A DNA stretch of 64,000 bases from a virus. How positions within the stretch are numbered: position 1 is the stretch's first letter; each line of letters starts with the position of its first letter. This document shows, one piece after another, positions 3,598 to 37,610 of this stretch. The notes under the pieces are model-generated. The model made no database searches. It was given only the letters and a program-made list of their open reading frames with translations, and was not told the origin of the DNA. The DNA lies in the IMG/VR virus record IMGVR_UViG_3300017971_000265, positions 13,933 to 77,932 of that record; one strand, written 5' to 3'. The translations under genes and the position numbers were made by a program.

Positions 3598-6500
3598 ATG
3601 ACTCTAGTTGTAGCACAAAATATCAGGGATCAACTGCTTGGAAGGGGCGAGGGGAAGTATAGCCTCGATACTATAGAGGACTATTTTCTTGAGGCGATGA
3701 ATCTGATGTTGGGAGATCAGGATTTTGTGTCGGTTGGAGAGAATGTGTGGCAGGTAGAGGGTGAGACTCCGATTACCGTAGAGGTATTCAGAGTATTTCA
3801 CGAGGCTACCGGACAAGATATCATCAATAGGGTAGTAATTGTGGCGGGCGACAATAGGAAAGAGGAGCGATGGGCACTTCCCCCGGCGCGTATTACCGAG
3901 AAGTTTTATTTGGATCATCTCAATGCGATCAAGGATTATGTTTCGCAATGTGTGATGGGCAGCATCATAGGGGAAGACGTCGAGCTGGATGAAGCCACTT
4001 ATAAACCAGGCAGCGTGGCTCACTTTCTTATGGTGCTGACGAGCAAGGTAATCCAGGCGGATCAGCGTCAAGAGAAGGCGGACATTAAGCGTGGAATATC
4101 GGTGAATATTTATCGCCTTGGACATTTTTTAAAAGCTATAAAGGATGTTCAAAAGGGTGTTTCTCGGGTGATGGGTAGCACTGAAAAGAAAGACTTATTG
4201 GTTTTGAAACAGCGAATCAGCCGAGCTTTTACTCCGCAGTTTTCTCCTTCCAAGTTTGTACAAAAAGCAATCGATAAATACCTGGAGACAGGTGCGCTTC
4301 CGAAGATCTCAGGCAAGCGGGGAACGAAACCTCCGTGGGAAGAAGTGGATGTAGAACATGATGACGTCGAGTTGGATGAAGGTTTGGCCAAGGCACCTTG
4401 GGAGAAGGGTGGTCCTTCATATGAGAAGCTTGGATATACAGTATTGGCAAAGGTAAAGGGGGTTTTTAAGACAGACAATGAGCAGGCGGCAAAACGGGTG
4501 GCTCGTGAGAAAGAACTCTCCTATGGATTATCAATCTATGGTTCGTGGTATATAGGCAGGCCGTATCAGCTAAAAAAGCTTGGTGTGCCTAGATGGCAGA
4601 TAAGAGAAGACGTTTCATCTCTAAGGAAAAGAGACGGCGTGTCTTTATTTGTTGGGGAAGGGATAGATCTAGATGAGGCTATTCAGTGGAAAAAGAAGAA
4701 GCAACCAGTGACAGGACTCGATAAGTTTGTTGCGGGCGATGTGCGTAACAAGATGGTACTTTCTCCAGCACTTGCTGGGGATGGCCGGATGAAGGGGTGG
4801 AGGCTCCAGTTTCCTAGTGGTGTCGTTATAAATCATCATATTGATGTTTCCGATTCTCATGGGGCGAAGCGGTGGGCGGAGAAAATAATTGCTACACGCA
4901 GAGAAGACGTCGAGTTGGGTGATACTGGATCAGTGGGGGATATTCAGTTGATGCGAGACGAGCTTCTGGGAGATATCGATGAGGCGTGTAAGACACCGGG
5001 CATGAAGAAGCGTTCTAAGGGGAAGGGTCGTGGCTTGGCCAAGGGCAAGGGCAGGGGGCCGTTGGGTATTCCCATAGGAGACAAGGTTGAGTTGGAAGAC
5101 GTCGAGATGAATGAGGCAAAAGAGTTGTCGCATAGAGAGGTGGAAAAAATAATTACATCCTATGCTTCGGAGTTGTTACCTCTTTTTGCAGACAAATGGA
5201 GTAGGTGGCCACAGGGCCAAGCGGCCAGGGAGATTTACAACGTTTTGATGAAAAAACATAAATTTTATTCTAGCTCAAAGATGAGTAAGGAAGCTGGTGA
5301 TATAAAGAATGTTGCTAGGACAATTTTGAAGCGGGGTGGTATCAAGGAAGACGTCGGGTTGGACGAGGCCCGGCGTAGGAAGAAGATGACCCCGCGAGTC
5401 GATCCCGACATCAAGAAGATTCGGCCAGGCACGGTGCCCAAGGAGATCACGCTGTTTGGTGGCAAGAAGCACGCGGTGGACCCCAAGGCGTGGAAGCACT
5501 TCGTGAAGGAGGCCAAGAAGAACAAGAAGTGGGCCGAAGATCACGAGTACGCGAAGAACCCGGACGAGTGGCCTGCCAGCGGCATAAGCAAGGACATGCT
5601 CAAGGAACGGCTCAGAAAATCGGTCGAGCAACTGGCCCTCGATTCGTATCGGTATGCCTATATGCGGTCGCACGGCGTGGCCAAGGCGTGGGGCTCGAAT
5701 ATGGCTCTCGATCCTGCCGCCAAGAGGAATTGGGAGAAGATCACAGGCAAGAAGATCGAGATCCCGATGGACCCGGCTGAGAAGAAGGTGCTGGACGCGC
5801 TACGGAAGAAGCGCAGGAACGAGGGTGTAGACGTCTCTGGGTTGCGCGATGACCTTCTGGAGTGCGGGTGCGAGGACGAACTGGACGAGGCCAAGGGCTT
5901 TACCAAGGGGCAGCGCGTATCGACCCCGCTGGGACCGGGTGACGTGGCGTATCAGCGAATGGGTCCTCCGAACTACAGTGAGCCCGTGTCCGTGTCGGTG
6001 GTGATCGACAAGAAGCGCAACAAGCCGGGCTATACCGGGACGATGTTCAAGGCGAAGGACGTGAAGCCGCTCAAGGAGGATGTCGAGCTGGACGAGGGCA
6101 TGACCAAGCACACCGTTTTCAAGTTCGGATCGCTGGATGATTTGTGGGATGCTCACGATGCTCTGCGAGAGGCTGGCATGAATGTCAGCCGGTGGACTGG
6201 TGGCTGGAACACCGGGATGCGTGGTCCAATCGCCGCGTGGGTTCACCAGAAGTCGAAGACTCTGGCATTCGGTTCTCCGTCCGTAGCGAGCGAGGCCAAG
6301 AAGATCCTGTCCGCGAAGAAGATCAAGATCGCCAAGGAGTTCAAGGAAGACGTCGAGTTGGATGAGGGCGATTCCAATTATGCGCGTTCTGAACTTGGCT
6401 ATTTGAAAAAAGGTGAGATATGGAGCATACAGATCAGGGATGACAGTGGTGGTGCAACAAAATGGATGGATATAAACAAAGAGGTAATTTCTGCGTTGAA

Positions 6501-8583
6501 AGGGAAGGGTCGGGGGACTTACGCTGCGAAGGAGATGGGCCGTTTGAAAAAAGGTGAGATATGGAGCATGCAGATCAGGGATGACAGTGGTGGTGCAACG
6601 AAATGGATGAACGTTAGTCCTGGGAGAATCAAGGCGCTTATTTCGATATGGAGCAAGCAGGGTCAACGAGAAGACGTCGAGTTGGACGAGGCCAATAGAG
6701 GTTTGAAGTCACAGGCAAATTCTATTCTAGTGACGGCTCAGGAGATGGAGACAGATCCAGATTATTTGAGCAGAAAGCCTGTGTTGGTGAAGCCTTATGC
6801 GGAGAACATGAGGGGGCATGTCAAGGAGTTGTTGGCTCGAAGCAGAGATCCATTGGTAGAAGATATTGCCAATTCAATTAGCCAGATTCGACAGAAAATG
6901 GAAAAGATGGCTAGGTATAGTGGGGGGCGCATTCCTGCCGAAAGGTTTTCGGAGTTTTTTATAAAATTAAAAGCGCAGGCCAAGGGGATACTCTCTGCGC
7001 TGAGAAGCAAGTCGGTGGCGGAAGGCATATTAGATGAGGCCAAGAAGACCTACGTGGTGAACGTTAAGAAGTATTTCCGGGGCATCACGGATCGTGGCGC
7101 GGTGGTCAAGGCTAGGAGTGAGAAGGAGGCTATTGCCAAGGCTGCGAAGCAGCTTGGTAAGAAACCGAGTTATCTGGAGATTGAGAATGTGTACGAAGAT
7201 GTCGAGATGAATGAGGGCGAAACTCTTTTTATTTCTCCGACTAAGGAGGGGAACAAAAAGTGGCAGATCCTTCACAGCACTAGCGGGATGGTCGGGACAG
7301 GTGGCCAGATCATCAAGATAGGGGGCAAGAAGGAAATCAAGGCGCTGGCGGCCAAGCTCGCGAAGAAATGGAAGGCCGAAGTCAAGGAACTGGCTGGCGA
7401 AGACATCGAGATGGAGGCTGGGGACGAAATTCACGCTCTCAGGGACGAGCTGCTTGGGGGCGTAGATGAGGCGTGCAAGACACCGGGTATGAAGAAGCGT
7501 TCTAAGGGGAAGGGTCGTGGCTTGGCCAAGGGCAAGGGCAGGGGTCCGTTGGGTATTCCTGTTGATGAGTTGGAAGACATCGAGCTGGATGAGGGCCGCA
7601 AGGTCAAGCAGTTTGAGTTGGGTGACATTGTACGTCATACCAAGAAGTTCTTGCGAAACACGGGTCAATACACTGGAGTACCCAGGAGTGGAAAGGTTGT
7701 TGGTTTTATTGATCTTGCTGGAAAGAAACTACCAAGGGTGAAATGGGATGATGGTAATGAGGCTCCCATTCAGCCGGAAAATATCGAAATACATCCGAGG
7801 CACAGGAGGCGTATCGAAGACGTCGAGTTGGATGAGGCTAAGACCATTGCTCAGTTTGATCCAGTGAAGGTGGGGACAAAGGTCAAGTTGGTTCGTGGCC
7901 TGTTTGATATGGAGAAAGATCTTTTGCGTAAGAAAAATGTGCATTTCACTTTCGTTCGGTGGGCGAAGCCTCACGGGCATGCTGTGGTGAAGGATAGTAG
8001 TGGAGCGAATTGGCATGTGCATCCCGAGTCTCTTATTCTTGCCGAAGATGTCGAGTTGGATGAGGCTACGCCAGCTGGTGGTGCGGTAGCACTGAAAGCA
8101 ATAGCGGCACTAATGAAGGATTTCCAATACGCTCCCAAGGAATCGAACAAGTATTATGCGGCGTTTGTATATCGGGGACGAGGGGGTAATCAATCTAGGA
8201 TACTCGCGAAAGCTGAGAGTGCCTTGGCTGATGCTGGTTTTGACGAAGCGTCTTTTGGCACGTCGGGGGCTGGGCTTATGGCCGAGACGAGGAGGGGCAA
8301 GGTCTGGGTCAATATATATCTACCAGGACTAAGGACAGAAGACGTCGAACTGGATGAGGCTGGTGTAACTGGTTATTCAATTATGCAGCTTTATAATATT
8401 TTGGCCCGGACGGTTAAGAAGGGAACTGTAAAAGAGATCGAGATGATTCATAACGAGTTAAAGGCCAAGGGGGCTGATATGCACCTGGTTGACCTAATTA
8501 TCAGATCGGGAGGAAAGCTTCCTGGTCGTGTCAAAAAAATAGCATCTTTGAGCGAGATGAGAAATGAGCTGCTGGGCAGCTAG
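3598..8583 (+). CDS. Modular polyprotein-like protein: about 18 small basic modules joined by EDVELDE-type linkers; putative precursor of internal head proteins
   Basis: SD AAGGAG; 17 linker copies; lies between terminase and portal. ORF is secure, function inferred. Confidence 0.7.
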   Translation: MTLVVAQNIRDQLLGRGEGKYSLDTIEDYFLEAMNLMLGDQDFVSVGENVWQVEGETPITVEVFRVFHEATGQDIINRVVIVAGDNRKEERWALPPARITEKFYLDHLNAIKDYVSQCVMGSIIGEDVELDEATYKPGSVAHFLMVLTSKVIQADQRQEKADIKRGISVNIYRLGHFLKAIKDVQKGVSRVMGSTEKKDLLVLKQRISRAFTPQFSPSKFVQKAIDKYLETGALPKISGKRGTKPPWEEVDVEHDDVELDEGLAKAPWEKGGPSYEKLGYTVLAKVKGVFKTDNEQAAKRVAREKELSYGLSIYGSWYIGRPYQLKKLGVPRWQIREDVSSLRKRDGVSLFVGEGIDLDEAIQWKKKKQPVTGLDKFVAGDVRNKMVLSPALAGDGRMKGWRLQFPSGVVINHHIDVSDSHGAKRWAEKIIATRREDVELGDTGSVGDIQLMRDELLGDIDEACKTPGMKKRSKGKGRGLAKGKGRGPLGIPIGDKVELEDVEMNEAKELSHREVEKIITSYASELLPLFADKWSRWPQGQAAREIYNVLMKKHKFYSSSKMSKEAGDIKNVARTILKRGGIKEDVGLDEARRRKKMTPRVDPDIKKIRPGTVPKEITLFGGKKHAVDPKAWKHFVKEAKKNKKWAEDHEYAKNPDEWPASGISKDMLKERLRKSVEQLALDSYRYAYMRSHGVAKAWGSNMALDPAAKRNWEKITGKKIEIPMDPAEKKVLDALRKKRRNEGVDVSGLRDDLLECGCEDELDEAKGFTKGQRVSTPLGPGDVAYQRMGPPNYSEPVSVSVVIDKKRNKPGYTGTMFKAKDVKPLKEDVELDEGMTKHTVFKFGSLDDLWDAHDALREAGMNVSRWTGGWNTGMRGPIAAWVHQKSKTLAFGSPSVASEAKKILSAKKIKIAKEFKEDVELDEGDSNYARSELGYLKKGEIWSIQIRDDSGGATKWMDINKEVISALKGKGRGTYAAKEMGRLKKGEIWSMQIRDDSGGATKWMNVSPGRIKALISIWSKQGQREDVELDEANRGLKSQANSILVTAQEMETDPDYLSRKPVLVKPYAENMRGHVKELLARSRDPLVEDIANSISQIRQKMEKMARYSGGRIPAERFSEFFIKLKAQAKGILSALRSKSVAEGILDEAKKTYVVNVKKYFRGITDRGAVVKARSEKEAIAKAAKQLGKKPSYLEIENVYEDVEMNEGETLFISPTKEGNKKWQILHSTSGMVGTGGQIIKIGGKKEIKALAAKLAKKWKAEVKELAGEDIEMEAGDEIHALRDELLGGVDEACKTPGMKKRSKGKGRGLAKGKGRGPLGIPVDELEDIELDEGRKVKQFELGDIVRHTKKFLRNTGQYTGVPRSGKVVGFIDLAGKKLPRVKWDDGNEAPIQPENIEIHPRHRRRIEDVELDEAKTIAQFDPVKVGTKVKLVRGLFDMEKDLLRKKNVHFTFVRWAKPHGHAVVKDSSGANWHVHPESLILAEDVELDEATPAGGAVALKAIAALMKDFQYAPKESNKYYAAFVYRGRGGNQSRILAKAESALADAGFDEASFGTSGAGLMAETRRGKVWVNIYLPGLRTEDVELDEAGVTGYSIMQLYNILARTVKKGTVKEIEMIHNELKAKGADMHLVDLIIRSGGKLPGRVKKIASLSEMRNELLGS
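4981..7560 (+). repeat. Two near-identical copies of a ~93-bp module (4981-5073 and 7468-7560)
   Basis: Both encode EACKTPGMKKRSKGKGRGLAKGKGRGPLGIP. Confidence 0.95.
6403..6609 (+). repeat. Internal duplication within one module (6403-6468 and 6544-6609)
   Basis: LKKGEIWSxQIRDDSGGATKWM twice. Confidence 0.9.
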
Positions 8584-8593: not shown

Positions 8594-9892
8594 ATGTCGC
8601 GACTAGAGTCGATTCGGGCCTTACGGGATGCTGTTGTAGAAAACAAAAGGGTTGGAAATCAGTCTCGTCTTGAATCGGGAGAGAAGCCTCGGTCTAGGAT
8701 CAGGTTGCCAATTTTGCCAACTAAGAAGAAAGAATTGAGGCAGAAAAAAATTGAGTGGAGTGGCATTGATTTCCGTCAATGGCTTACTGACGTCAACGAA
8801 GCGGTAGATTCTATTACTGGGATGGACATGGATATTTTGCCAGAGATGCCTTGGCAGAGCTGGTTCAAAGAAGGGATGGAGCCAGAGGATGCGGCAAGGC
8901 TTGCGCTGGAAGCTGCAGAGTTAGGGGATGATATCTCTGAAGAGGAGGAGGAGTTGAATGAGCGTGGCTTTTTTAGGCCGTCGTATCAAAAATGGATCAG
9001 CAAGCTCGATAAGCGATTAAGAAAAAAGGGAGGGGCTACTCTTTCAGCTCTCAAAAGGGCGGGTCGAGTCTCTAATTCAACTCTCCATTCTATATTTATG
9101 AGCCAGGCCACGGCAGAAATGGCTGCTCGGATGCTGCTTCAGGCCGTAGGAACTCCGATGGAAGATGAAGCAGTGTCTCTTCGGAGGCGCAATTTTGTAT
9201 CGGAGAACCAGATGGAGGATTCTTTTGATCAATTGCGTGACCTAATGGATGAGTTTGGGATTGGTACTAGCCGTCCCCCTGTGACGACACGGGATATTGG
9301 CGAACCAGAGGAAGGGCTCGATGAGGAAAATACATCTTCTTCTCAGGAAACCCATGAGCTTCCTCAGAAGGCCCAGAGTCCTTCTCAGTTGTCCCAAGAC
9401 GTATCAAGTGCCATTGCTGCCGTAAGGGCTGTGGAGGAGAAGGAGCGGGCACACAAGGATGCTCAGAGTGAGATAGAAGAGGCTTCTGTTCAAGGTGGAG
9501 ACTATGGAAGGTGGGGGCCAGCTACGACAGCGGCTGGATCGGCTGGCAGATCCTTAGCGTCGGCCATTGCTAAGGCGAGTGGTGAGAGCTATCATTTTCA
9601 TCAGGAAGGGATGGCTCAAAGTGCGGATGTGGGATCGGATCTTTGGTTTGAGATCGAGCCAAAAAATCCTAAGAGCCCTATTTACTATTTGGGTATCAAG
9701 ATAAAAGGGGACAAGGAAGATCCGCGATGGGATGTTATGCTTAAGAAGGGTGCTGGGCTGGGATCAGCTACTTCGGTTGGGTCGAAACGCGGCATAGAGA
9801 CGTCTAAGTTAAAGGGGGCGATTAACGAACTCAAGGCTGGGTTGAAACAAAAAACGAAAAAGAAGGATGGTGATAAAGATGCGGCCAGTTAA
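8594..9892 (+). CDS. Hypothetical multi-segment protein, possibly a second processed head protein
   Basis: SD GAGGAG; basic segments follow ELNE/R and EIEE/A; internal SLRRRNFVSE motif. Confidence 0.6.
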   Translation: MSRLESIRALRDAVVENKRVGNQSRLESGEKPRSRIRLPILPTKKKELRQKKIEWSGIDFRQWLTDVNEAVDSITGMDMDILPEMPWQSWFKEGMEPEDAARLALEAAELGDDISEEEEELNERGFFRPSYQKWISKLDKRLRKKGGATLSALKRAGRVSNSTLHSIFMSQATAEMAARMLLQAVGTPMEDEAVSLRRRNFVSENQMEDSFDQLRDLMDEFGIGTSRPPVTTRDIGEPEEGLDEENTSSSQETHELPQKAQSPSQLSQDVSSAIAAVRAVEEKERAHKDAQSEIEEASVQGGDYGRWGPATTAAGSAGRSLASAIAKASGESYHFHQEGMAQSADVGSDLWFEIEPKNPKSPIYYLGIKIKGDKEDPRWDVMLKKGAGLGSATSVGSKRGIETSKLKGAINELKAGLKQKTKKKDGDKDAAS

Positions 9893-10175: not shown

Positions 10176-10178
10176 CGA

Positions 10179-12926
10179 ATGTCTAAGATCTCGCAGGCAT
10201 CGGCCCAATTTATTCGGAATATTTTTGGGCGAGAGAGAGCAAAGAGCGATCTGGCAATTTCGTCTAGGGAGTTGATTAGAACGGCCCAGGGTGGGATGTA
10301 TGGATCTGGAATAGATGTGGGAGGTATCGGAGGTATTGGAGAAGCCCTAGCTCTCGATAGACGTCTCCTCTATCGTTACGGTGACTATGAGGAGATGGAT
10401 GAATACCCCGATATTAATGCGGCCCTGGATATTTATGCTGACGATACTACACAGGTTGATGGGGCTAAGAGACAAAGCGTGTGGGTCGAAAGTGATGATG
10501 GCAAAATCAAGGATGAACTAAATGATCTTTTTCATGAACGTTTAAAGATTGAGGAAAATATCTGGTCTATTGCGAGAACTCTCTCAAAGTACGGGAATGA
10601 TTTCGAAGAAATTGTAGTGGGGGATGGCGGGGTTGTTGATCTTAACTATTTACCTATCGCCAGTGTGAGGCGCGTAGAGGATAAGCGGGGAAACCTCTTA
10701 GGATTTGCACAGACCTTTTCTGGCAACGTGGATATATCGCCGGAACAGTTTGAGAAATTACGAATTCCCGGAGGGGGCGCTGTAGGGCCTCAAAAGGACG
10801 TCGCTGCATTTGAAGATTGGCGTGTTGTGCATATGAGATTGCTCTCGAAGCATCGTGAATCAAAGTATGGATGGAGTGTGGTAGATGCGGCGAGATGGAT
10901 CTGGAAAAGATTGATGCTGCTCGAAGATGCCGTGATGGTTTACAAGTTATGTTTGCGTGGTGACTCTCAGGTATGGACAACAAATGGTAAGAAGGCCATT
11001 AGGGATCTTGAGGAGGGGGAAGAGGTTTTTTCCTACACAAGGGATGATGTCCTGAAAAAGACTAGGGTTGTTTATAAAAAACATAATGGGAAAGATCGAC
11101 TTTTTAGGATTAAAAGCGCCCATCGTGAGCTGTTTGCTAATGCGACACACCCCGTATTGGTTGAGACAATCATTGGCAAGGGAAGTGGCAAATCGTGTGG
11201 GCGCAGGATGGATTATGTCGAGGTAAAGGATCTTAGGCCGGGTGAGCATCGTCTTGTGACTCCTTTTAGGGATGATAGTCTTTGTGAAGATATACCATTG
11301 GTCGTGCCGGAGGCGCTTGACGACAATAAGAAGTTAAATCTACCCAAAGTAGTAAATGCTGATTTTGCAAAATGGTTTGGCTTTATGATCGGTGTTGGTT
11401 TTGCTTCGGCGCGATCTTTTATCGAGGGAGATAGAGCATGTCTGGTCTACGAGGTAGGTTTTGTATCCGGGGACAAGAGGGACATTAATGAGAAGTATCG
11501 AGAACTATTTGCTTCCTTCTTTGGTGAGCCCAAATTTGTGAAAGCTGAGAGGTCCAGGCATGATTGTGTCGGTAAGTTTTTAATATCTTCGAGGGCTCTT
11601 TATGAGTTTATGATATTGAATGGATTTATGGCGCATAACAGACGGATTCCAGAATGGGTCTTTAGGTCTTCAACGGTTGTACGGGAAGCGTTCCTTGAGG
11701 GATTAGCTGATGGCTATTGCGAAGGGGGTGGGGTCAGTGTTGAACGCGGTCGTGTAAGCATATCTCTTGAGTCGTGTAATTTTGAATTGGTCAGAGATGT
11801 ACGTGAACTAGTGATGCAGCTTGGTTTTAGGGTTGGCAAGATTACGTCTAGGGAAAGACCGGATAGTTATCTTCCCGAGACGACTATTTATTGTGTGAGT
11901 TGGAGTTATGATAGGCAACCTATGACTGAGGAGCTGGAAAGTGTTGAAGAGGTCGAGGTTGATGATATTTGGGACATTGGTGTTGAGGCTGATGAGCATA
12001 ATTTCGTAGCGAATGGAATAGTTGTTCATAACACTAGGAGTCCATCTAGGTATGCTTTTTATATTGATGTGGGAAAATCGAATCGACAAGAGGCAGAGCG
12101 GTATGTGCAAGAGGTGATGCAGCGATTGAAGAAGAAGAAGTTTGTGAATCCCAAGACGGGAAAATTGGATCTTAAAAATAACCCCATGGGGATGGATGAA
12201 GACTTCTTTTTGGCAATGCGTGAGGGTAGGGAGCAGACCAGGGTAGAGTCATTAATGGGGCCGTCGTATCAGCAAGTTGACGATGTGGAATATTTTTTAA
12301 ACAAACTCTATGCTGCGATAAGAATCCCCAAGGCGTATCTGGGATATGATCAAAATCTCCCAAGCAAGGCAACCCTAAGTATGGAAGACGTCCGTTTCGG
12401 GCGGACTATTTTGCGCATTCAGCGAGAGGTGCGCAACGGGTTGAGAAAGATTGCTAATGTTGATTTAGCGGCGAGGCGAATAGATCCTGCTGCGACTAAG
12501 TTTGATATAATGATGGCTGTACCGAGTGCCATATTCGAGCTTGGCCAGATGGAGATTAGGCGAGCACGGGCCGATCTCGCCTCTATGATGGAACGGCACG
12601 TATCTCTCTACTGGATCTTGAGCAACATCTATGGTTTGGCAGAGGATGAAATAGCCGAAATAACCAAGCAGAAAAAAACTGAACAAAAGATGATGGGCGG
12701 TGCTGGAGGCGGTATGGGTGGGGGAGGTTTTGAGTCGGTTGATCCCAGGCAGGGCAGGGTAATTAGTGAGCGTGAATTGATGGATGGAAAAAAAGAAGAC
12801 GAGAAACGTGTCGAAGAGATTGTTCACAAGGTGGTAAATGATCCATCGAGTCCGTTGGGTAGGCAACTGCGAGAAACGGGACATCTCGTTCGTGAAATTG
12901 TCCATTCTCTTCATAGTTCTGCATAA
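10179..12926 (+). CDS. Portal protein (T4 gp20-like), intein-containing
   Basis: LMLLEDAVMVYKL/TRSPSRYAFYIDVG, EDFFLAMREG and KLYAAIRIPKAYL match gp20-family motifs. Confidence 0.93.
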   Translation: MSKISQASAQFIRNIFGRERAKSDLAISSRELIRTAQGGMYGSGIDVGGIGGIGEALALDRRLLYRYGDYEEMDEYPDINAALDIYADDTTQVDGAKRQSVWVESDDGKIKDELNDLFHERLKIEENIWSIARTLSKYGNDFEEIVVGDGGVVDLNYLPIASVRRVEDKRGNLLGFAQTFSGNVDISPEQFEKLRIPGGGAVGPQKDVAAFEDWRVVHMRLLSKHRESKYGWSVVDAARWIWKRLMLLEDAVMVYKLCLRGDSQVWTTNGKKAIRDLEEGEEVFSYTRDDVLKKTRVVYKKHNGKDRLFRIKSAHRELFANATHPVLVETIIGKGSGKSCGRRMDYVEVKDLRPGEHRLVTPFRDDSLCEDIPLVVPEALDDNKKLNLPKVVNADFAKWFGFMIGVGFASARSFIEGDRACLVYEVGFVSGDKRDINEKYRELFASFFGEPKFVKAERSRHDCVGKFLISSRALYEFMILNGFMAHNRRIPEWVFRSSTVVREAFLEGLADGYCEGGGVSVERGRVSISLESCNFELVRDVRELVMQLGFRVGKITSRERPDSYLPETTIYCVSWSYDRQPMTEELESVEEVEVDDIWDIGVEADEHNFVANGIVVHNTRSPSRYAFYIDVGKSNRQEAERYVQEVMQRLKKKKFVNPKTGKLDLKNNPMGMDEDFFLAMREGREQTRVESLMGPSYQQVDDVEYFLNKLYAAIRIPKAYLGYDQNLPSKATLSMEDVRFGRTILRIQREVRNGLRKIANVDLAARRIDPAATKFDIMMAVPSAIFELGQMEIRRARADLASMMERHVSLYWILSNIYGLAEDEIAEITKQKKTEQKMMGGAGGGMGGGGFESVDPRQGRVISERELMDGKKEDEKRVEEIVHKVVNDPSSPLGRQLRETGHLVREIVHSLHSSA
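10950..12032 (+). mobile_element. Intein (361 aa) in the portal
   Basis: CLRGDS...ANATHPVL...IWDIGV...HNFVANGIVVHN followed by Thr. Confidence 0.93.
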
Positions 12927-13036: not shown

Positions 13037-13070
13037 GAATGTGTGGTTTCATCTTTCGTTAGGAGGAGTA

Positions 13071-13973
13071 ATGAGCCACGGGAAAAATGATATGATTGTA
13101 GAGGCAAAGGTTCTTCATGATTTGCAGAAAGGTTCCTATGAGGAACTTTTGCAATCGTTGGATCGGGCCGTTATCGAAAATCAAGATCTGTTTGGGGACG
13201 ACGCTGTTTTGTTTGCTTCTCACCTAGATAGGGTCATTGTAATCAATGAGGGGGGGCAGTTTTTTTCTGCGAATTATACCAACCGAGACGGGGTGATTAG
13301 GTTTGGAAAGGTCGATGAGTTGGACGTAAATGCGGTGACGGAAGAATCAATCGTTGCCAGTGCTGTAGATAATTTTTTCGAGGGGGAATCGTTGGCTGAA
13401 GGTTTGAAGGGGCTTATGGATTTGCGTCAAGGCATTGATGAGTCGCCCATAGCTAAGACAAGGGAGTCTTTGTCTCGCCTATTTGGTGGGGGTCGATTGT
13501 GGCGCAGATATGTTGATGAGCACAGCGAACGAGTCAGCAATTTTGCTTGGGATGCAGATTATGGTTCTTTAAAGATTGATGTGCGGCCAATTTTTAGTGA
13601 CAGGGGTAGTGATGTTATCGAAGATGAACAAGAGGTAATGTCGGCACTGATCAATTTGGAGCGACGTCTTGTTGAGAGTCTGAATAAAACAACTGAGATT
13701 TACAAGGCTTACCAGGAAGAGACGAAAGATTTGCGAAGTGACGAGGCTGATCAGGTTCTGAGTCGTTTCGAATCTTTCGCTTCTGATTACATCGATCATT
13801 TGACTGAAGTTTCTAACTTTGCATCGAATGCGGTGCGACGTGGGAGAGATGGTAATGTATCTTGTGCCGCCATTACTCATGATGAGATAGCGGCTAGGTT
13901 TAAAGAGTTGGAATTGGGTGGCAGATTTGTCAGGAAAGTTTCATCTCAATTTTTGCAGCAACAATCTGCGTAG
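13071..13973 (+). CDS. Head assembly region protein (prohead core-like)
   Basis: SD AGGAGG before ATG 13071; lies between portal and protease. Confidence 0.6.
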   Translation: MSHGKNDMIVEAKVLHDLQKGSYEELLQSLDRAVIENQDLFGDDAVLFASHLDRVIVINEGGQFFSANYTNRDGVIRFGKVDELDVNAVTEESIVASAVDNFFEGESLAEGLKGLMDLRQGIDESPIAKTRESLSRLFGGGRLWRRYVDEHSERVSNFAWDADYGSLKIDVRPIFSDRGSDVIEDEQEVMSALINLERRLVESLNKTTEIYKAYQEETKDLRSDEADQVLSRFESFASDYIDHLTEVSNFASNAVRRGRDGNVSCAAITHDEIAARFKELELGGRFVRKVSSQFLQQQSA

Positions 13974-13985: not shown

Positions 13986-15233
13986 ATGGCAGTTCGACCT
14001 CTCGAAGAAGATTTCCAACGTTTAGGATTATCACAAGATGAAATCCGTGCGTCACTTCACAATATGGGGCGACCCTTGGGTGAAATGGCAGAGGCGGATC
14101 TCAGCGATGGTTCTGAAGAAGAGGAAGATGAGGACTTCGAGGAATCCTATCTGAGTGATCTGATAGGTCATGACGACGATGAGGCAGAGGACTTTGACGA
14201 GATGTCAGAGGAAGATTATTTTGAGTTTGTTGACAATCTTTCCGATGAAGAGTTGGATAGGTTGCTTGAAAACTCGGAGATGTTCGAGGCGAAGTTTATC
14301 AAGCTTACTCCTTTGGGTACGCGCAAGACGGCTCGCAGGAAGAGGAAGAAATGGCTCAAAACGGCTGCGGGTCAAGCCTATGCAAGAAAGCAGATGCAGA
14401 AGCGAAAGCGTCCCGCTTTTAAAAAGCAAGCCAAGAAGCAGCGTATTAGGCGCAAAAGAGCGGGTGGAGCACGTAAGGGCTATATGATGCGTGCCGGAGT
14501 CGAAAATCCTTCAGAAGGGAAAGAAGCTATACATGAAGATCTCATGGAAAGCTTGACCGATCTCGCTGAGTCGATTGAGCGTGAACCTGTTTCTCGTTTC
14601 GACGAATATGTCACAGCATTTAATGCCCTTGCTGATCTGGGAGAGCTGGGTGCTGCAAAGATCATGGACGAAGACGAAGATGCGGCAATGGACGTCTTGA
14701 ATCTGTCGCTCCAGGCAGAAGAAGTGTTGAAGCTCATGGAGGACATGGGTGGAGCGCTCGACGAAGACGAAGACGAGGTGCTGGAAGAGGCTCTGGCCCA
14801 GCTGATGGAGCTTGCCGGAGAACTCGTCGAGGAGTATGGCTTGCTTCTCGAAGATGAAGACGAGGAAGAGTATGAGGACGAGGAGCTGGAAGAAGATGAG
14901 GAAGAGATCAATCCCTTCCTAGAGGCTGCTGCTTCGCTTCGTGAAGCTAGACGTCCCCCCAAGGGCAAGAAGCGCTTTCTTCTCAATCCTAAGTCCAGAA
15001 AGGCCGTAAAGGGTCGGTCGAAGTGGAGCAAGGCCGGTGGCAATGCTAAGAGGCAGTTGGCTGGACGCAAAGATGTGAGGAATAAGCAGGCTTTGCTTGG
15101 CTATCTCAAGATGGTGAAGGCGGGCAAGGTTGCTCCTGGCCAACCCATTATGATGAGTAAAACCGGGAAGCCCCTCAGCAAGGGTGCGAGAGCTGCCAAG
15201 AAATTGGCTGCGGCCCGAAGGAAAGCTGGCTGA
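13986..15233 (+). CDS. Prohead core/scaffold-like protein with alternating acidic and basic blocks
   Basis: D/E tracts and K/R tracts; position of T4 gp67/gp68. Confidence 0.6.
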   Translation: MAVRPLEEDFQRLGLSQDEIRASLHNMGRPLGEMAEADLSDGSEEEEDEDFEESYLSDLIGHDDDEAEDFDEMSEEDYFEFVDNLSDEELDRLLENSEMFEAKFIKLTPLGTRKTARRKRKKWLKTAAGQAYARKQMQKRKRPAFKKQAKKQRIRRKRAGGARKGYMMRAGVENPSEGKEAIHEDLMESLTDLAESIEREPVSRFDEYVTAFNALADLGELGAAKIMDEDEDAAMDVLNLSLQAEEVLKLMEDMGGALDEDEDEVLEEALAQLMELAGELVEEYGLLLEDEDEEEYEDEELEEDEEEINPFLEAAASLREARRPPKGKKRFLLNPKSRKAVKGRSKWSKAGGNAKRQLAGRKDVRNKQALLGYLKMVKAGKVAPGQPIMMSKTGKPLSKGARAAKKLAAARRKAG

Positions 15234-20599: not shown

Positions 20600-20712
20600 C
20601 GGGAGACATCGATGTTGCCTGAGAACATCGAGTCCAAAAGTCCCGCGTCGAGAAAAGGTTTGGTGAGAGATGGGAATTCCCAAGGGTCTTTCCCACATGC
20701 GAGGAGGGTTAG

Positions 20713-25828: not shown

Positions 25829-26241
25829 TGGTTTCTTCTCTTACCAGTACTGTTGATCTTCTCCAAGATGCACGCAAGTTCATGACGCCTGGACGCGAGG
25901 GGCGTGGCAAGCATGATCCGGTTGGATATGTACTTGGTAAATTTTTTAACTCTACGCCAGAGTTCGATAAGTCGTTAGTTGAGAGACAGCGACGGAAGAA
26001 TGGTTGGACGCTGCGAGGAGCATGGCCAAGTACTGGTCGGAAAATATTCGATTGGGAATTTGATGTTTGGGGCGAGCGCGGGGGTGAAGTAGTTGTGAAA
26101 TTTGCGATGTGGAGTAATGAAGGATTGATTGATGGTCTGAGTTTTAGAACCAACGTAGGGACTGTGGATAGGCTTATTCCTAAGTTTTTGAGAAAATACT
26201 TCTATCCCATGAAGGCTATGGCAAAGGAGAGAGCGGCATGA
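25825..26241 (+). CDS. Hypothetical protein
   Basis: Overlapping start/stop codons with both neighbours. Confidence 0.6.
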   Translation: MMVSSLTSTVDLLQDARKFMTPGREGRGKHDPVGYVLGKFFNSTPEFDKSLVERQRRKNGWTLRGAWPSTGRKIFDWEFDVWGERGGEVVVKFAMWSNEGLIDGLSFRTNVGTVDRLIPKFLRKYFYPMKAMAKERAA

Positions 26242-26633
26242 ATCTTAGATGTCGCGGATATTTAGTGGAAAAGACGCTAAATGTTAAGCAGGCAATTCCC
26301 GATCAAGATTTAAGCGATAGGGAATTGGTACAAAGGATAAAAAGCTATAGGGTCGATAAGACTCGGGGGTGGGGTTTGTTTGTCAAGGCAAGAAATCTTC
26401 GACCGGGAATAGATGCGAAAGAATTTTATAAGATTTTTGATTCTGTAAATCCTGATCCTCATCACACGATAGTTTCGGTTAAGTTTGAGCCGACACATAT
26501 ATCGAAAGATACTCCAGGATTATCCATAATGGTTACCTCAAGAACGCCGCATTTGGTACGTCATATAATGAGCTATGGTGGAACTGGTGGCACGCCTGTA
26601 CGTGAGTTTGATCGGCAATGGAGAGCAATATGA
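26238..26633 (+). CDS. Hypothetical protein, class I leader
   Basis: MNLRCRGYLVE. Confidence 0.7.
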   Translation: MNLRCRGYLVEKTLNVKQAIPDQDLSDRELVQRIKSYRVDKTRGWGLFVKARNLRPGIDAKEFYKIFDSVNPDPHHTIVSVKFEPTHISKDTPGLSIMVTSRTPHLVRHIMSYGGTGGTPVREFDRQWRAI

Positions 26634-26863
26634 ATCTTAGACGTCGTGGATATTTACAGGAGTCGGTTGGGATTGTGAAAAAATCTCAGATTGATAGGAA
26701 CAAATCTTATACTGTTTGGGAGAAGCATCCCTATATGGATACGTGGATGATCGATAGATCTTACTATGGGATTTATTTCTATGGAGAAGGCGAGGCTTAT
26801 TTGAAATCAAAGAAACATATTGTGGTTCCCAGGGGAGTGGACCCAAATAGGGAGGACAAGTGA
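26630..26863 (+). CDS. Hypothetical protein, class I leader
   Basis: MNLRRRGYLQE; SD GGAG. Confidence 0.7.
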   Translation: MNLRRRGYLQESVGIVKKSQIDRNKSYTVWEKHPYMDTWMIDRSYYGIYFYGEGEAYLKSKKHIVVPRGVDPNREDK

Positions 26864-26864: not shown

Positions 26865-27353
26865 ATGAGTCTTCGAGATGTAAATGAATTGCTTCGTGGC
26901 AGTGTTGCGCAGATCAGGGACATAGAAGAGGCAGCGCCAGCGCCCGGTGTGGTAGACTTGGAGAATCCGGTCTATCATATACGTCAGAAGGTGGCTAAGA
27001 TCAGTGTCCCGGTCTCACCAACAACTAGTATTGCTGCTGGACAGACAGGGGCGAAGTTGTTGAAACAGAGACTGACAGGTTGGACAAAGGCTGATCATAA
27101 AAAGGCTGTGGTTAAGTTGGAAAAAATGGCAAAGAGGGCCAAGGCTGACTATGCGCGTGCGCTCGATAGGGCGGCGCAGGAAACGTGGGGGCGAAAATGG
27201 AAGCCGACTGATTACAAGATCTCTTGCGTTGGTTCGGATGAATTTTCCGAGTCGATCAAGAAAAAACTCCGAGTGTTGTGTCGTAAGATGACAATTATTG
27301 GAGATGCGCTTGCGTCTCATAGGTATTTGGCAAAATATCTAAGGACAAAATGA
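26865..27353 (+). CDS. Hypothetical basic protein, class II leader
   Basis: SD GGAGG; MSLRDVNELL...DIEE/A. Confidence 0.7.
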   Translation: MSLRDVNELLRGSVAQIRDIEEAAPAPGVVDLENPVYHIRQKVAKISVPVSPTTSIAAGQTGAKLLKQRLTGWTKADHKKAVVKLEKMAKRAKADYARALDRAAQETWGRKWKPTDYKISCVGSDEFSESIKKKLRVLCRKMTIIGDALASHRYLAKYLRTK

Positions 27354-27835
27354 AGTTTACTCTTACAGAGAATCTGATCTTGCTTGAATTCCTCCTGGGG
27401 GAACTCTCAGGATCGGAGTATCTGGTTGAGAAAAAGATCTCTAAACTGACTCCTTACCAGAAGGCGCAAAGGGCAAGACGTCAAACAGTGGCGGCACATA
27501 CTCCTCGTCCGGCGAAACAGAGTGTGTTTTACAAACATGCTGTGCGGGCAATATTTCAGAAGCTTAGAAAAGGCGGGGATGGTTTCAAGGGGTCAGCTAG
27601 GGGAGGGCAGCTTATTGCTCAACATATGTTGAAAAAGCATGGATATGCAGCGGGGAGTCCTTCTGGCAACTTCAGTCTAACCAGCAAGGGTAGGAAGAGG
27701 AATTTGAAACATGTACGTGAGCCTGCTGGGGTACGGGCGAGAAAAGAGCGTGCCTACAACTACATTATGGGTATTCAGAAACGTGCCGCTCAGAGGCAGC
27801 AGCAGGTGAAGGCCAAGGCGGCTGGAGCTGGATAG
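27350..27835 (+). CDS. Hypothetical very basic protein with acidic/hydrophobic leader ending YLVE
   Basis: Sharp charge switch after YLVE. Confidence 0.7.
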   Translation: MKFTLTENLILLEFLLGELSGSEYLVEKKISKLTPYQKAQRARRQTVAAHTPRPAKQSVFYKHAVRAIFQKLRKGGDGFKGSARGGQLIAQHMLKKHGYAAGSPSGNFSLTSKGRKRNLKHVREPAGVRARKERAYNYIMGIQKRAAQRQQQVKAKAAGAG

Positions 27836-27843: not shown

Positions 27844-28116
27844 ATGAATAGTTTGAGAAATCGCGGGTATTTGGAAGAGGGGCAGTATCAAGTGTCTATT
27901 GGTCCTGACGATGACCTGGAAGATAAGACTGGTGAGCTGATGAAAATGATCAGAGCAGCTATTCACGGTGGTATCAGGAGGGTATTGGCTCAGAATGGTA
28001 TGTCTCCTTCTGTGATCGGGAAGGTGGATAGATACCTTGATGCCAAAGAAGGTAAATTCATGGATGATTTGACTGATATTATGTTGAAAATGCGAGTTCC
28101 ACATAGGCTTGGGTAA
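27844..28116 (+). CDS. Hypothetical protein, class I leader
   Basis: MNSLRNRGYLEE. Confidence 0.7.
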   Translation: MNSLRNRGYLEEGQYQVSIGPDDDLEDKTGELMKMIRAAIHGGIRRVLAQNGMSPSVIGKVDRYLDAKEGKFMDDLTDIMLKMRVPHRLG

Positions 28117-28163: not shown

Positions 28164-28439
28164 ATGTCGCTAAGAAATAGGTCTTATAGATATATCGATG
28201 AAGCCAAGATGCGGAAGTATGTTGGTGTTAGGGCCAAGGGTGTTGCATCTCTGCTTTTTTCTACTGCAAACGATGCCAAGGATGCTGCAGCTAAAATCAA
28301 TCGTTTCAAAAGGAGTTATGATGCATCTTATAGGAAGTCTGGTGACGTATGGAGAGTAGAGGTTGAGGGCATATCTATTGCCGAGCTTGTTTCATTGATT
28401 GACAAGCTGGATCTCAAACCGTTGACGCAATATCACTAG
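28164..28439 (+). CDS. Hypothetical protein, class I leader
   Basis: SD AGGAG; MSLRNRSYRYIDE/A. Confidence 0.7.
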   Translation: MSLRNRSYRYIDEAKMRKYVGVRAKGVASLLFSTANDAKDAAAKINRFKRSYDASYRKSGDVWRVEVEGISIAELVSLIDKLDLKPLTQYH

Positions 28440-28448: not shown

Positions 28449-28928
28449 GTGGGCACACTAATAAATGATTGCGACCAATGTTTTTTCGACAGCGTGGCAC
28501 AAGAGGTGATCAAGCTGGCAGGAACTACTGCGATCATCTATCAGTTTGAAGAAGTCGAGAGTTCACGAGATGCGCTTTGGGATGAGGAGATTGAGACTGT
28601 TTACAAAAAGAATAGTGAGGGGAATCCAGGAATTGAATGTCCCGTCTTTTTTAAGGCTCCAGACAAGTCTGGTCTTACCGGAGAAGAGGGGTATAGGCTT
28701 GATAGGACGTCAGAGCTTCATGTGGCATGGCGAGACTTAGAAAGCAGAGGGCTGAGACGTTTGCGTCCTGGTGATATTGTGAAAGTTTGGGATATGTATT
28801 TTGATGTTATAGAGTCACACGCTACCGAGGGGTACATTAACGATACTCCGACAAAATCGACCATTGTTTTTGATGTGACGAGACGAACAAAGGGGCCACC
28901 TGAGAGTTTGTGGGAGCCTGGCGAATGA
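28449..28928 (+). CDS. Neck/head-closure protein (T4 gp14-like)
   Basis: AQEVIKLAG...IIY...DALWDE, RPGDIV; position downstream of the gp13-like gene. Confidence 0.65.
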   Translation: MGTLINDCDQCFFDSVAQEVIKLAGTTAIIYQFEEVESSRDALWDEEIETVYKKNSEGNPGIECPVFFKAPDKSGLTGEEGYRLDRTSELHVAWRDLESRGLRRLRPGDIVKVWDMYFDVIESHATEGYINDTPTKSTIVFDVTRRTKGPPESLWEPGE

Positions 28929-29374
28929 GTGAGGTAAGGCAAATCTTAGAGGATGTGTTTACGGAGAGGAAGAAGGCTACTATCCGTGGACGTGCCAAAG
29001 GATTGAGAAGGCCGAAGAGAGCTGAGAAACAGCATTATTTGGGGCGTGCCACAGGAATGAGAGGGCGTGATCTAAGCGGAGAGCCCGAGGCTCCGAAAGT
29101 GCCTGGAGCTAAGGAAGAGCCGTGGAAGAAAGAGAGAATTACTGAGTTTGAGAGTCCTGACGACTGGATGTTGTCGATGATTTTGGTTGCAATAATGCAT
29201 GCGAATCCTGGCATTAAACCGGAAGATGCGATTAAAATAGGGAAAGAATGGGTAAAAAAATTATATCTGCCAAGGACTGACTATCTTTGGAGAATGCAAA
29301 TGGTCAGACTGAACAGAACAGGTATCAGAGCTGAGGCATCAAAGATTCGGCGTGAATTGTTCAAGGTGATCTAG
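28925..29374 (+). CDS. Hypothetical protein, leader ending VFTE
   Basis: MSEVRQILEDVFTE then basic segment. Confidence 0.65.
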   Translation: MSEVRQILEDVFTERKKATIRGRAKGLRRPKRAEKQHYLGRATGMRGRDLSGEPEAPKVPGAKEEPWKKERITEFESPDDWMLSMILVAIMHANPGIKPEDAIKIGKEWVKKLYLPRTDYLWRMQMVRLNRTGIRAEASKIRRELFKVI

Positions 29375-29383: not shown

Positions 29384-29665
29384 ATGGACATAATAGAAGC
29401 AAATGCTTTGCTAGATAAAGCAGTGGAAAGGCTCGCAGAGAAGATTTGGTCAGGAGAGGTTAAGACCAAGTGGCATCCTCCCGAGGGTTTTTTCGAGCAG
29501 AGTGCGAGCAAGATTGCTAGTGGTCTAAAATCAGCCTCGAAAGATCTGAAGCAAGCCATGGCCCGGTTGAATTTCTATATAAACAGAGCTGGGGAAAATC
29601 TCTCAGATGCAGATGTTAGACGTCTGGAGATGGCCAAGAAAAAACTCCAAAAGGCTTATGTATAG
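29384..29665 (+). CDS. DUF3175-like protein with class II leader
   Basis: EGFF...KIASGL...AMARLNFYINRAGENL...LEMAK resembles the DUF3175 signature as I recall it. Confidence 0.65.
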   Translation: MDIIEANALLDKAVERLAEKIWSGEVKTKWHPPEGFFEQSASKIASGLKSASKDLKQAMARLNFYINRAGENLSDADVRRLEMAKKKLQKAYV

Positions 29666-29673
29666 GAGGAGTC

Positions 29674-30285
29674 ATGAATCTACACAAAGTAAACGAATTG
29701 TTGGCTGAGACGATTTATGAGATCGGGGCTGGTGGTTTGAGGCCGATCAAAACGAGTGGTATTTTGATTCAACCAAATGTGACTTACCACATGGGTGCAT
29801 CTAGTTCTCCCCATAAAATCTTTGTGACCAAGGTTGATGATAGGATGATTTATTATCGATCTTATCCGTTTTATCGAGGACGAGAGGCCCGAATTGATCG
29901 AGGGATAGGAACGGATCTGATTCTTCAAGGCGTCAATACCTTCATGAAAAGTGGGTATGGTAAGTACCCTTGGGGAAAAGCGACGATCAGAAAATACAAA
30001 TCGTTACTTGCTGGCAAAAAGGTTAAGCCTGAAGATCTCAAGGATTACCAGAGAATAAAAGTCACGGTGGGGCCGGGCAAGGGGTATGAGGGCAAAGATT
30101 TGTGGCGTGAGGCTGAGTCGCATGGCTATGGTGTTGGGGGTAGGCGAGTCGAGGGAATGACGGATGGATTTCCGTGGATGAAAAATGATAATTCTAGTGT
30201 GTACGAGATTGAGATGGATAAGAAGAGTTTGCCGGGTCTAAAGAAAGATAAGCGTTTCAAAATTCTGAGCATAAAAGAAATGTAG
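29674..30285 (+). CDS. Hypothetical protein, class II leader
   Basis: MNLHKVNELLAETIYE. Confidence 0.7.
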   Translation: MNLHKVNELLAETIYEIGAGGLRPIKTSGILIQPNVTYHMGASSSPHKIFVTKVDDRMIYYRSYPFYRGREARIDRGIGTDLILQGVNTFMKSGYGKYPWGKATIRKYKSLLAGKKVKPEDLKDYQRIKVTVGPGKGYEGKDLWREAESHGYGVGGRRVEGMTDGFPWMKNDNSSVYEIEMDKKSLPGLKKDKRFKILSIKEM

Positions 30286-30297
30286 GGAGGTGACGTC

Positions 30298-30651
30298 GTG
30301 AAGCTTCGGAAAATAAATGAGTTATTGGGTGATACGGTTGAGAGCTTGACCGAATCGTTTCCTGCTTCATCTCCTGGTGAGGTAGCAATTCGCAAACTCA
30401 TAAGGGCTGTTCAGACAAAGACTCGTCTCCGATTTATGTATCGATCTGGTAAGATTGTTACGCTGAGCGGTGCAGTTGTGGCAACACTTGCTGCAACAGA
30501 GGACGGAAGATTCAATATAGAGGTTATCGAGTACGATACAAATTATCGATATGGATACAAGCCTAGAGGCAAAAAAACCTACAAGGAATTGTCGAAAGAA
30601 GCTGCGGTGAAAGTGCTTGCTAAGGCGTTAGAGGCGCATCCAGGAGTATAG
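30298..30651 (+). CDS. Hypothetical protein, class II leader
   Basis: MKLRKINELLGDTVESLTE. Confidence 0.7.
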   Translation: MKLRKINELLGDTVESLTESFPASSPGEVAIRKLIRAVQTKTRLRFMYRSGKIVTLSGAVVATLAATEDGRFNIEVIEYDTNYRYGYKPRGKKTYKELSKEAAVKVLAKALEAHPGV

Positions 30652-30662
30652 GAGTTGTCGTC

Positions 30663-31079
30663 ATGAGTGTTGAGTGGGTCAATGGAATGCTGAATGAGGC
30701 GATTGCAGAACTGGCTGAGGCGAGAAACAGGACTCTTAAGAAGGATTTGAAATTCAAGAGTGGCGATATTATTCCTAGAGGCACCCCGGTTGAGGTGGAG
30801 TTTTTGGGAGAAAGAGATCCCAGGGGATATAGTGTCGCGCTTTTGAAGGCGAATTGGAGAGGGTCAAATGGGCGAGATTATCAGAGGGAGCCTGTTCGAA
30901 TATCGATTGCCAAGCTACACAAATATGTGAGTGGTTTTGGTAAGCCACCAGGAATGGCCAAGCTGGAACGCATGGCCTCGGATGGAGTAGCAACGACTCC
31001 GACAGGAAAGCGCGTGGAGCCTGATGGATATGGACCAGATGGATCTCCTAGTTGGCTCATGGCGTTGGGATTTGTCTAA
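30663..31079 (+). CDS. Hypothetical protein, class II leader
   Basis: MSVEWVNGMLNEAIAELAE/A; C-terminal VEPDG...SWL..LG motif. Confidence 0.7.
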   Translation: MSVEWVNGMLNEAIAELAEARNRTLKKDLKFKSGDIIPRGTPVEVEFLGERDPRGYSVALLKANWRGSNGRDYQREPVRISIAKLHKYVSGFGKPPGMAKLERMASDGVATTPTGKRVEPDGYGPDGSPSWLMALGFV

Positions 31080-36166: not shown

Positions 36167-36194
36167 TTTGTCGAGAACGTAAGGAGGATAGGTT

Positions 36195-37412: not shown

Positions 37413-37610
37413 ATGGGACTACGGAAAAGAGCATATCTCGCAGAAATCACCACATCGGGCGCTGTGCCCCCTCTTGTTAAGCCCTTTGCCGTCTACCGAA
37501 GAGCTTTTCCAACGACGCTGAGCGGCATTGTGGACAAGCTGACGCGATCTAAGAAACGGTTGGCCAAGAAATTCTCCAAAATGGGGCCTCCTCTTCCTCC
37601 CAAGGTTTGA
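37413..37610 (+). CDS. Small basic protein, class I leader
   Basis: MGLRKRAYLAE. Confidence 0.6.
   Translation: MGLRKRAYLAEITTSGAVPPLVKPFAVYRRAFPTTLSGIVDKLTRSKKRLAKKFSKMGPPLPPKV

Follow-up and report, generated by a model that had tools for sequence, protein, structure and literature searches.

A candidate capsid-cargo system in an uncultured phage with a T4-type head: a multi-module polyprotein and leader-tagged small genes linked by a prohead-protease-like cleavage motif

We analyzed a 64,000-nucleotide (nt) stretch of phage DNA (positions 13,933 to 77,932 of the 77.9-kb IMG/VR virus contig IMGVR_UViG_3300017971_000265), hereafter the window, which is a late structural region with every gene on the + strand; its source is an uncultured myovirus with a T4-type head from marine or sediment samples. 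Between positions 3598 and 37610, the window carries a candidate capsid-cargo system that consists of a 1661-amino acid (aa) polyprotein and approximately 17 small genes with N-terminal leaders, which share a hydrophobic-x-Glu motif with the propeptide of the major capsid protein. We give a probability of roughly two in three to the reading that this system is a many-passenger enlargement of T4 capsid loading, whereby precursors are targeted to the prohead and cut by a gp21-type protease. Prohead-protease processing and T4-like capsid targeting are, by inference, well supported. The sequence itself shows the motifs and their non-random recurrence, protease and capsid-site homology to T4, and turnover of the cargo modules, whereas targeting, cleavage in vivo, retention, ejection, and any function of the cargo are inferred.

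The polyprotein is encoded by a single open reading frame (ORF):

3598..8583, + strand: 1661-aa cargo polyprotein (predicted) with an acidic N-terminal domain (aa 1-132) and 17 further segments of 41-174 aa

Its segments are joined at 17 linker sites, located after residues 132, 261, 360, 462, 506, 590, 764, 833, 923, 1031, 1147, 1206, 1291, 1332, 1413, 1489, and 1587. The linkers are acidic, with the consensus EDVELDE↓A/G (the arrow marks the predicted cut) and endings of the form L/M/I-x-E↓A/G; 10 of them have A as the P1' residue and the other 7 have G. A strict linker pattern matched the polyprotein 13 times and the contig's other 21,647 aa not once, and the shuffled polyprotein gave a mean of 0.03 matches (maximum, 1). 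Linker codons differ at synonymous sites (GAA/GAG, GAC/GAT, CTG/TTG), which indicates that selection acts on the peptide, and the possibility that the linkers are mere DNA repeats was rejected on this ground. Approximately half of the linkers have a second hydrophobic-x-E six residues upstream, so that a linker hexapeptide could be excised. As a separate observation, the linker Val is GTC at all sites and the GAC-GTC core is near-constant while the other codons are varied (3973-8358), which may reflect DNA-level constraint on the linkers or recombination between them.

The isoelectric point (pI) of the segments is 8.3-9.8 in 15 of the 18, and the first segment is acidic (pI 4.4). They are mutually unrelated except for a duplicated peptide of 41-44 aa, and one segment holds an internal tandem repeat. 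AlphaFold (AF2) models of two modules, based on homologue alignments, reached a predicted local distance difference test (pLDDT) score of 90 and 91 and consist of a four-helix domain and a small beta-barrel; in both, the pLDDT drops in the linker. With its segments basic and the two modelled ones compact, the polyprotein was rejected as a scaffold: the T4 scaffold and core proteins gp22, gp67, and gp68 are acidic or coiled-coil and degraded to short peptides, a description that is matched better by the ORF at 13986-15233 and by the C-terminal extension of the protease described below.

An RDELLG-like motif (a hydrophobic-R-D/N-E-L-L-G helix) occurs five times inside the polyprotein, once at its extreme C-terminus; this type of helix is also found in other polyproteins and is rare elsewhere. 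At the C-terminus (8560-8580), at least three independent polyproteins (P0001, P0029, P0023) end in hydrophobic-R-D/N-E/A-L-L-G/S, which suggests that this ending is a functional C-terminal tag and not a cleavage site. At the other end, the acidic domain (aa 1-132, 3598-3993) is shared, again N-terminally, by six or more other polyproteins with lengths of 335-1092 aa (G003, P0026, P0031, P0036, P0063, P0153) and may serve this polyprotein subclass for loading or anchoring.

The enzyme and the capsid precursor that would connect these motifs to head maturation are encoded side by side:

15233..17995, + strand: gp21-like prohead serine protease (Peptidase S77), 920 aa; Pfam S77 (PF03420) at 36.7 bits versus a cut-off of 27
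18024..19508, + strand: gp23-like major capsid protein; Pfam Gp23, 4e-60

The protease also matches phrog_207 (9e-28) and PDB 5jbl (T4 gp21, 5e-6), the latter aligning in two halves. Its catalytic His and Ser are intact, as GELDHP aligns with GELNHP of T4 and GVSSRG with the same six residues of T4. The protease contains an intein of 389 aa (aa 100-488, nt 15530-16696), which runs from Cys1 to Asn with a +1 Ser and is inserted two residues after the catalytic His. Protease homologues of two related contigs, G001 and G003 (63-65% identical), are without intein, so protein splicing is not part of the mechanism; the spliced protease of which the first-pass annotation had spoken is to be understood as protein splicing by this intein. 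The C-terminal extension of approximately 270 aa is an acidic coiled coil and likely a part of the scaffold. In the capsid protein, the predicted propeptide (aa 1-69, nt 18024-18230) ends in FLTE↓A, and FLTE69↓A aligns with FLTE65↓A of T4 gp23 through K-W…L-L-E-G and F-E-N blocks (T4 gp23 sequence from NC_000866, mature start checked against PDB gp23* chains). The alignment with T4 gp23 identifies the end of the propeptide as a homologue of the T4 cleavage site, and the ending L-x-E↓A/S is kept in nine of nine relatives.

The second group of precursors consists of stand-alone genes with two families of leaders. The class A leader, M-x-L-R-x-R-x-Y-L-x-E, is N-terminal on six window genes (25490, 26238, 26630, 27844, 28164 as a variant, and 37413) and on two genes just upstream of the window, and the motif is internal in 8594-9892 and 24531-25481. 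In three related contigs it was found on small ORFs at residues 2-3, and in a six-frame scan of four related contigs nearly all matches fell in coding frames, most of them at residues 2-3, with varied codons. The class B leader, on approximately 11 genes, is a helix of 12-27 aa of the x-L-x-K-V-N-E-L-L-A-E or …L-T-E type (NELL/RDELLG-like) that ends in hydrophobic-x-E. The tagged genes of the window are as follows:

20303..20599, + strand: 98-aa class B tagged gene (…KVLAE↓S); polyproteins of 401-409 aa in other phages (P0005, P0006) begin with the same domain
21295..21870, + strand: gene of 191 aa, conserved in relatives, whose class B-like leader (…RLVAE↓E) is weak
23849..24523, + strand: class B tagged gene (M-S-L-F-Y-M-N-Q-L-L-S-E…VLTE↓V), 224 aa when read from the ATG that directly follows the upstream stop
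24531..25481, + strand: 316-aa two-module mini-polyprotein with a class B-like leader, a conserved module, then a variable module
25490..25828, + strand: class A tagged gene (…K-L-R-H-R-Q-Y-L-G-E↓G), mature pI 9.9
26238..26633, + strand: class A tagged gene (M-N-L-R-C-R-G-Y-L-V-E↓K), mature pI 10.0
26630..26863, + strand: class A tagged gene (M-N-L-R-R-R-G-Y-L-Q-E↓S), mature pI 9.2
26865..27353, + strand: class B tagged gene (M-S-L-R-D-V-N-E-L-L…DIEE↓A), mature pI 10.2
27350..27835, + strand: very basic conserved protein (mature pI 11.9) whose leader, 27 aa long, ends in YLVE↓K; 67-74% identical in G001 and G002, L-x-E kept
27844..28116, + strand: class A tagged gene (M-N-S-L-R-N-R-G-Y-L-E-E↓G)
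28164..28439, + strand: variant class A tagged gene (M-S-L-R-N-R-S-Y-R-Y-I-D-E↓A)
28925..29374, + strand: class B-like tagged gene (M-S-E-V-R-Q-I-L-E-D-V-F-T-E↓R), mature pI 10.5
29384..31079, + strand: four consecutive class B tagged genes (29384-29665, 29674-30285, 30298-30651, 30663-31079)
37413..37610, + strand: class A tagged gene of 65 aa within the tail module (M-G-L-R-K-R-A-Y-L-A-E↓I), mature pI 11.6

The predicted mature products have a pI of 9-12 in 15 of 17 cases, compared to a median of 4.7 for the structural proteins. Small, basic, and mutually unrelated mature parts stand behind a short, shared N-terminal leader ending in hydrophobic-x-Glu, as in the internal proteins of T4. In the mini-polyprotein at 24531-25481, the two modules are separated by a class A motif at aa 83-92 (S-L-R-R-R-G-Y-L-A-E↓S); its G001 homologue has two such internal motifs. 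The 191-aa gene at 21295-21870 may encode a structural head protein rather than cargo, because it is conserved in relatives. Homologues of the four class B genes at 29384-31079 were not found in G001-G003, and G002 has a class A-tagged small ORF at the position equivalent to 37413-37610, which is a positional match. The proposal of the first-pass annotation that linkers, leaders, and capsid prodomain end in the same motif was borne out for all 17 linkers, both leader families, and the capsid FLTE69↓A, and its descriptions of what follows these sites as small, basic, mostly unrelated domains and of a nearby protease as gp21-like agree with the pI values and the S77 homologue given above.

We then compared the cargo among relatives, which came from a linker-DNA scan together with a capsid search (approximately 10 contigs, capsid identity 71-78%). 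Across these related contigs, the genes of the head and tail backbone remain syntenic. Ten tagged window genes lack homologues in the relatives, where different tagged genes occupy the corresponding positions; such hypervariable gene content between related phages is also a property of the T4 internal proteins. Each larger relative has one polyprotein of 401-1092 aa, located at three different loci overall: between terminase and portal (window contig and G003), in a small-gene island (G001 and G002), or directly after the capsid gene (L033). The modules are reshuffled, in order as well as in content, from one polyprotein to another, and the stand-alone 98-aa gene at 20303-20599 is the first module of the L033 polyprotein (P0006, just after the capsid gene). 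Searched with phmmer, a set of 1.8 billion representative proteins yielded 599 hits. Modules 133-261, 612-721, and 765-833 and the basic peptide described below also occur as single small proteins, several with leaders ending in L-x-E, and the same modules occur in other polyproteins with different linkers (E-E-R-L-x-E↓G/S; D-E-L-M-L-D-E↓A/G/S), in which L-x-E plus a small residue is kept. A complete phage of 191 kb that encodes an S77 protease has a homologue of module 133-261 in a row of six or more neighboring small genes with a shared leader of another type, M-x-I-A-x-Q-L-x-E-A. A tblastn search of 50,697 phage records with the polyprotein gave one partial match, to an uncultured 485-kb phage, and no cultured relative; a search of IMG/VR for related loci with P0015 and P0087 found nothing. 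The earlier idea of an expandable library fits this turnover of tagged genes and modules, in which modules switch between polyprotein and stand-alone form.

The closest parallel is the internal-protein system of T4. There, leaders of 10-19 residues target the internal proteins to the core and are removed by gp21; the proteins are basic, approximately 1000 copies travel with the DNA, and their set differs among T-even phages (PMC3012670, PMC9026906, PMC5694885). Leaders of this kind suffice for packaging (PMC9026906, PMC3012670), and passengers fused behind IPIII are co-packaged and processed (PMC9026906). The leaders in the T4 record are MKTYQEFIAE↓A for IPII and IPIII (10 aa), a 19-aa leader for IPI (…ITE↓A), and MAKINELLRE↓S for gp24; the class B ending N-E-L-L-A-E↓T of the window resembles E-F-I-A-E↓A and I-N-E-L-L-R-E↓S of T4. 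With IPI, IPII, IPIII, and Alt, the window system shares a short leader ending in hydrophobic-x-Glu, small, basic, unrelated cargo, and a variable gene set, together with a gp21-type protease and a gp23-type capsid; sequence homology of the cargo to IPI, IPII, or IPIII was not found in Pfam or PHROG searches. It differs from T4 in having two leader families, one of them Arg-rich (L-R-R-R-x-Y-L-x-E), approximately 17 tagged genes where T4 has 3-4, leaders that are also used internally, and a natural polyprotein with approximately 18 modules. The stand-alone route is a new instance of the known T4 capsid-targeting principle: its leaders match the T4 capsid-targeting sequence (CTS) in length, ending, and basic cargo, and the principle as such was already established in T-even phages.

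Three further systems are similar in part. In the engineered T4 IPIII/CTS 'expression-packaging-processing' system of Hong, Mullaney and Black, targeted passengers likewise enter the prohead and are freed by gp21 (PMC9026906); the window arrangement, in contrast, is natural and multi-passenger and has a dedicated repeated linker. In the giant phages phiKZ and SPN3US (gp175, gp245), many head-internal proteins are cut after Glu by a gp21 homologue, and their propeptides are thought to be targeting signals (PMC5694885, PMC10052503); these propeptides, however, exceed 100 aa, the motif is A/S-x-E, the cargo consists of paralogue families, and no beads-on-a-string polyprotein has been described. 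Polyvalent proteins (Iyer et al. 2017, PMC5512222) share many unrelated modules per polypeptide, probable delivery with the DNA, and shuffling, but carry recognizable enzymatic effector domains and embedded peptidases (PMC5512222). Neither was found in the window polyprotein, which has no known-family module, would rely on the head-maturation protease in trans, and has linkers that are a conserved predicted cleavage motif. A head-protease-processed multi-module cargo polyprotein was not found in the literature searched, which is not proof of absence, and neither an Arg-rich leader class nor internal leader use is described there.

Under the proposed mechanism, the cargo would be small, mostly basic proteins made as two kinds of precursor, namely a stand-alone gene product with a removable leader of approximately 11-27 residues or a module inside the polyprotein. 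Leaders, embedded RDELLG-type helices, and possibly the acidic N-terminal domain would dock the precursors to the assembling prohead core and act as equivalents of the T4 capsid-targeting sequence. The gp21-type serine protease, which would mature by intein splicing and has a scaffold-like tail fused to it, would cut behind hydrophobic-x-Glu after shell closure, strip leaders and linkers, and free approximately 18 + 17 small proteins; the roughly 35 products estimated earlier are a reasonable count for 18 segments and about 17 genes. The folded basic products would be too large to exit the shell, stay with the DNA, and probably be expelled with it at infection.

Several points weigh against this mechanism. 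The phage is uncultured, and its cargo system is predicted from sequence; cleavage after L/I-x-Glu by the window protease is likewise a prediction, made from the specificity of the T4 enzyme. Because chance alone often produces a hydrophobic-x-E with a small residue behind it (87 matches of L/I/M-x-E followed by A, G, or S in 21.6 k aa), several class B leaders, namely 21295, 24531, 27350, and 28925, are weak calls. The class A gene at 37413 belongs to the tail module, and the ORF of a large tail protein (56618-59050) contains, near 57912, a class A-like match with the sequence M-R-R-R-G-Y-I-G-E, so the class A tag may not be capsid-specific, although the match at 57912 may be chance. No cargo module matched a known effector, anti-defence, or DNA-binding family. 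Pfam found nothing above threshold in the whole polyprotein, and Pfam, PHROGs, and NCBIfam assigned no family to the polyprotein, its homologues, or at least 25 tagged proteins. For module 133-261, Foldseek (PDB, BFVD) and a wide VIA-align search gave generic helical-bundle matches only, with Z below 8, and the ESM Atlas gave no usable lead for modules 133-261 and 591-764. Module 765-833 resembled a small SH3/Tudor/KOW-like barrel (best E 0.1), which is too generic for function to be deduced from the fold. Effector and DNA-neutralizing roles of the cargo are thus unsupported by any homology or fold match.

The genes lie within the head-assembly cluster, adjoining terminase and portal, and their products have many cleavage sites, as does T4 gp22; since T4 IPIII also aids assembly (PMC9026906), the precursors could instead form a transient prohead assembly core, the cleaved pieces of which are discarded like most gp22, gp67, and gp68 fragments, with no delivery to the host. 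We regard this as improbable, though it is the most serious of the alternatives. The segments are folded basic domains of 5-20 kDa rather than acidic coiled coils, the protease extension and ORF 13986-15233 are better scaffold candidates, and a content that varies strongly among phages with such similar capsids is unexpected for an essential core.

A somewhat less probable alternative is that the polyprotein remains uncleaved as a multidomain, polyvalent-type virion or non-virion protein, in which the acidic repeats are flexible spacers and the leaders ordinary N-terminal helices. Polyvalent multi-domain phage proteins do exist (PMC5512222), and a plain spacer would likewise show low linker pLDDT. 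However, linker flanks change across lineages while L-x-E and the small residue are kept, the same ending is present on the capsid propeptide at the T4-homologous site, and modules exist as free-standing genes with L-x-E leaders. That another host or phage protease cuts the precursors in the cytoplasm, giving equimolar small proteins unrelated to the head, is very improbable: tagged genes do occur outside the head module (G000 11441, 12139; G001 22003, 102526; window 37413), but the S77 enzyme is the only recognizable protease in the region and its known specificity fits, and the relatives' polyprotein lies between terminase and portal or beside the capsid gene.

Among the modules of the proposed capsid cargo, one short peptide is conserved far beyond the window. 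It has the sequence C-K-T-P-G-M-K-K-R-S-K-G-K-G-R-G-L-A-K-G-K-G-R-G-P-L-G-I-P and two copies in the polyprotein:

4984..5115, + strand: Gly/Lys/Arg peptide copy 1 (A-C-K-T-P-G...G-R-G-P-L-G-I-P), preceded by RDELLG-x-x-D-E; a 116-nt duplicate, 91% identical to 7444-7559
7471..7593, + strand: Gly/Lys/Arg peptide copy 2, a duplicate of copy 1

Homologues occur in at least 20 protein clusters, as tandem copies or as stand-alone ORFs of 35-67 aa. The peptide mostly follows directly after …E↓A/G, so its Cys would be residue 2 of the product. No description of this Cys-capped peptide was found in the literature searched. DNA charge neutralization is a reasonable guess for its role and, if true, would make it a new candidate for this function in phage capsids. 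Adenovirus pVII and pre-mu are basic, DNA-associated peptides that are freed inside the capsid by the maturation protease adenain; the likeness is limited to this peptide analogy, as virus, protease, and motif are unrelated.

More tentatively, and at somewhat less than even odds, we propose that cargo polyproteins, built by fusion and fission with leader-tagged genes from interchangeable modules joined by prohead-protease sites, are widespread in phages with T4-type heads, that the Cys-capped peptide is perhaps a protamine-like DNA condenser or a capsid anchor, and that the head protease is the release switch for a fast-evolving injected arsenal. If the capsid-loading reading is true, the T4 capsid-targeting principle scales to dozens of passengers, natural polyproteins load a whole protein set at fixed proportions in one assembly event, and the head-maturation protease is a universal release mechanism. 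The leader families and the L-x-E linker grammar would then provide sequence rules for virion-delivered proteins in metagenomic phages, and thereby a route to new anti-defence or host-takeover proteins, and the tags and linkers would be usable for packaging foreign proteins into phage heads.

The gene order of the window begins with the terminase large subunit, the 1661-aa ORF, a 432-aa ORF, a 102-aa ORF, and a gp20-like portal, followed by two acidic ORFs, the 920-aa gp21-like protease, and the gp23-like capsid protein; after the capsid gene come approximately 30 mostly small genes, the sheath (34022-36166), the tube, and the remaining tail. The neighbors of the cargo and protease genes are as follows:

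470..3586, + strand: terminase large subunit with an intein that includes a LAGLIDADG domain (Pfam Intein_splicing, LAGLIDADG_3)
8594..9892, + strand: conserved 432-aa head-module protein; a class A motif, S-L-R-R-R-N-F-V-S-E, lies internally at aa 197-206 and recurs in the G001 homologue
10179..12926, + strand: T4 gp20-like portal with an intein; Pfam Portal_T4 8e-65, phrog_213
13041..13973, + strand: acidic 310-aa protein between portal and protease, pI 4.7; positional analogue of T4 core proteins
13986..15233, + strand: candidate scaffold or core protein of 415 aa, with poly-acidic and poly-basic tracts

The terminase gene is the upstream neighbor of the polyprotein, and its C-extein gave tblastn matches to annotated terminase large subunits at approximately 31% identity. 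The portal intein is an insertion of approximately 350 aa (residues 270-618) whose Intein_splicing match is sub-threshold (30.2 bits versus a cutoff of 35.8). The 310-aa protein has four hydrophobic-x-E sites that are kept in three phages, and family searches returned no match for the 415-aa protein. The nearest cultured relatives of the capsid protein are only approximately 33% identical. The contig is present in one sediment and one seawater metagenome, both DNA datasets, which may be its samples of origin; no RNA dataset containing it is listed among the sequencing runs.

Inteins interrupt three head-morphogenesis genes, namely those of the terminase large subunit, the portal, and the prohead protease. 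From 63038 to 64000, where the window ends, runs an array of 15 or more units whose period is 60 nt. Another intergenic element is dispersed and can be read as a pseudo-ORF (M-L-P-E-N-I-E…G-S-P-A-L-R-K-G-L-V-R-D…); its window copy lies between head genes at 20612-20794, and further copies are found upstream of the window at G000 2505, 3287, 4509, and 6727.

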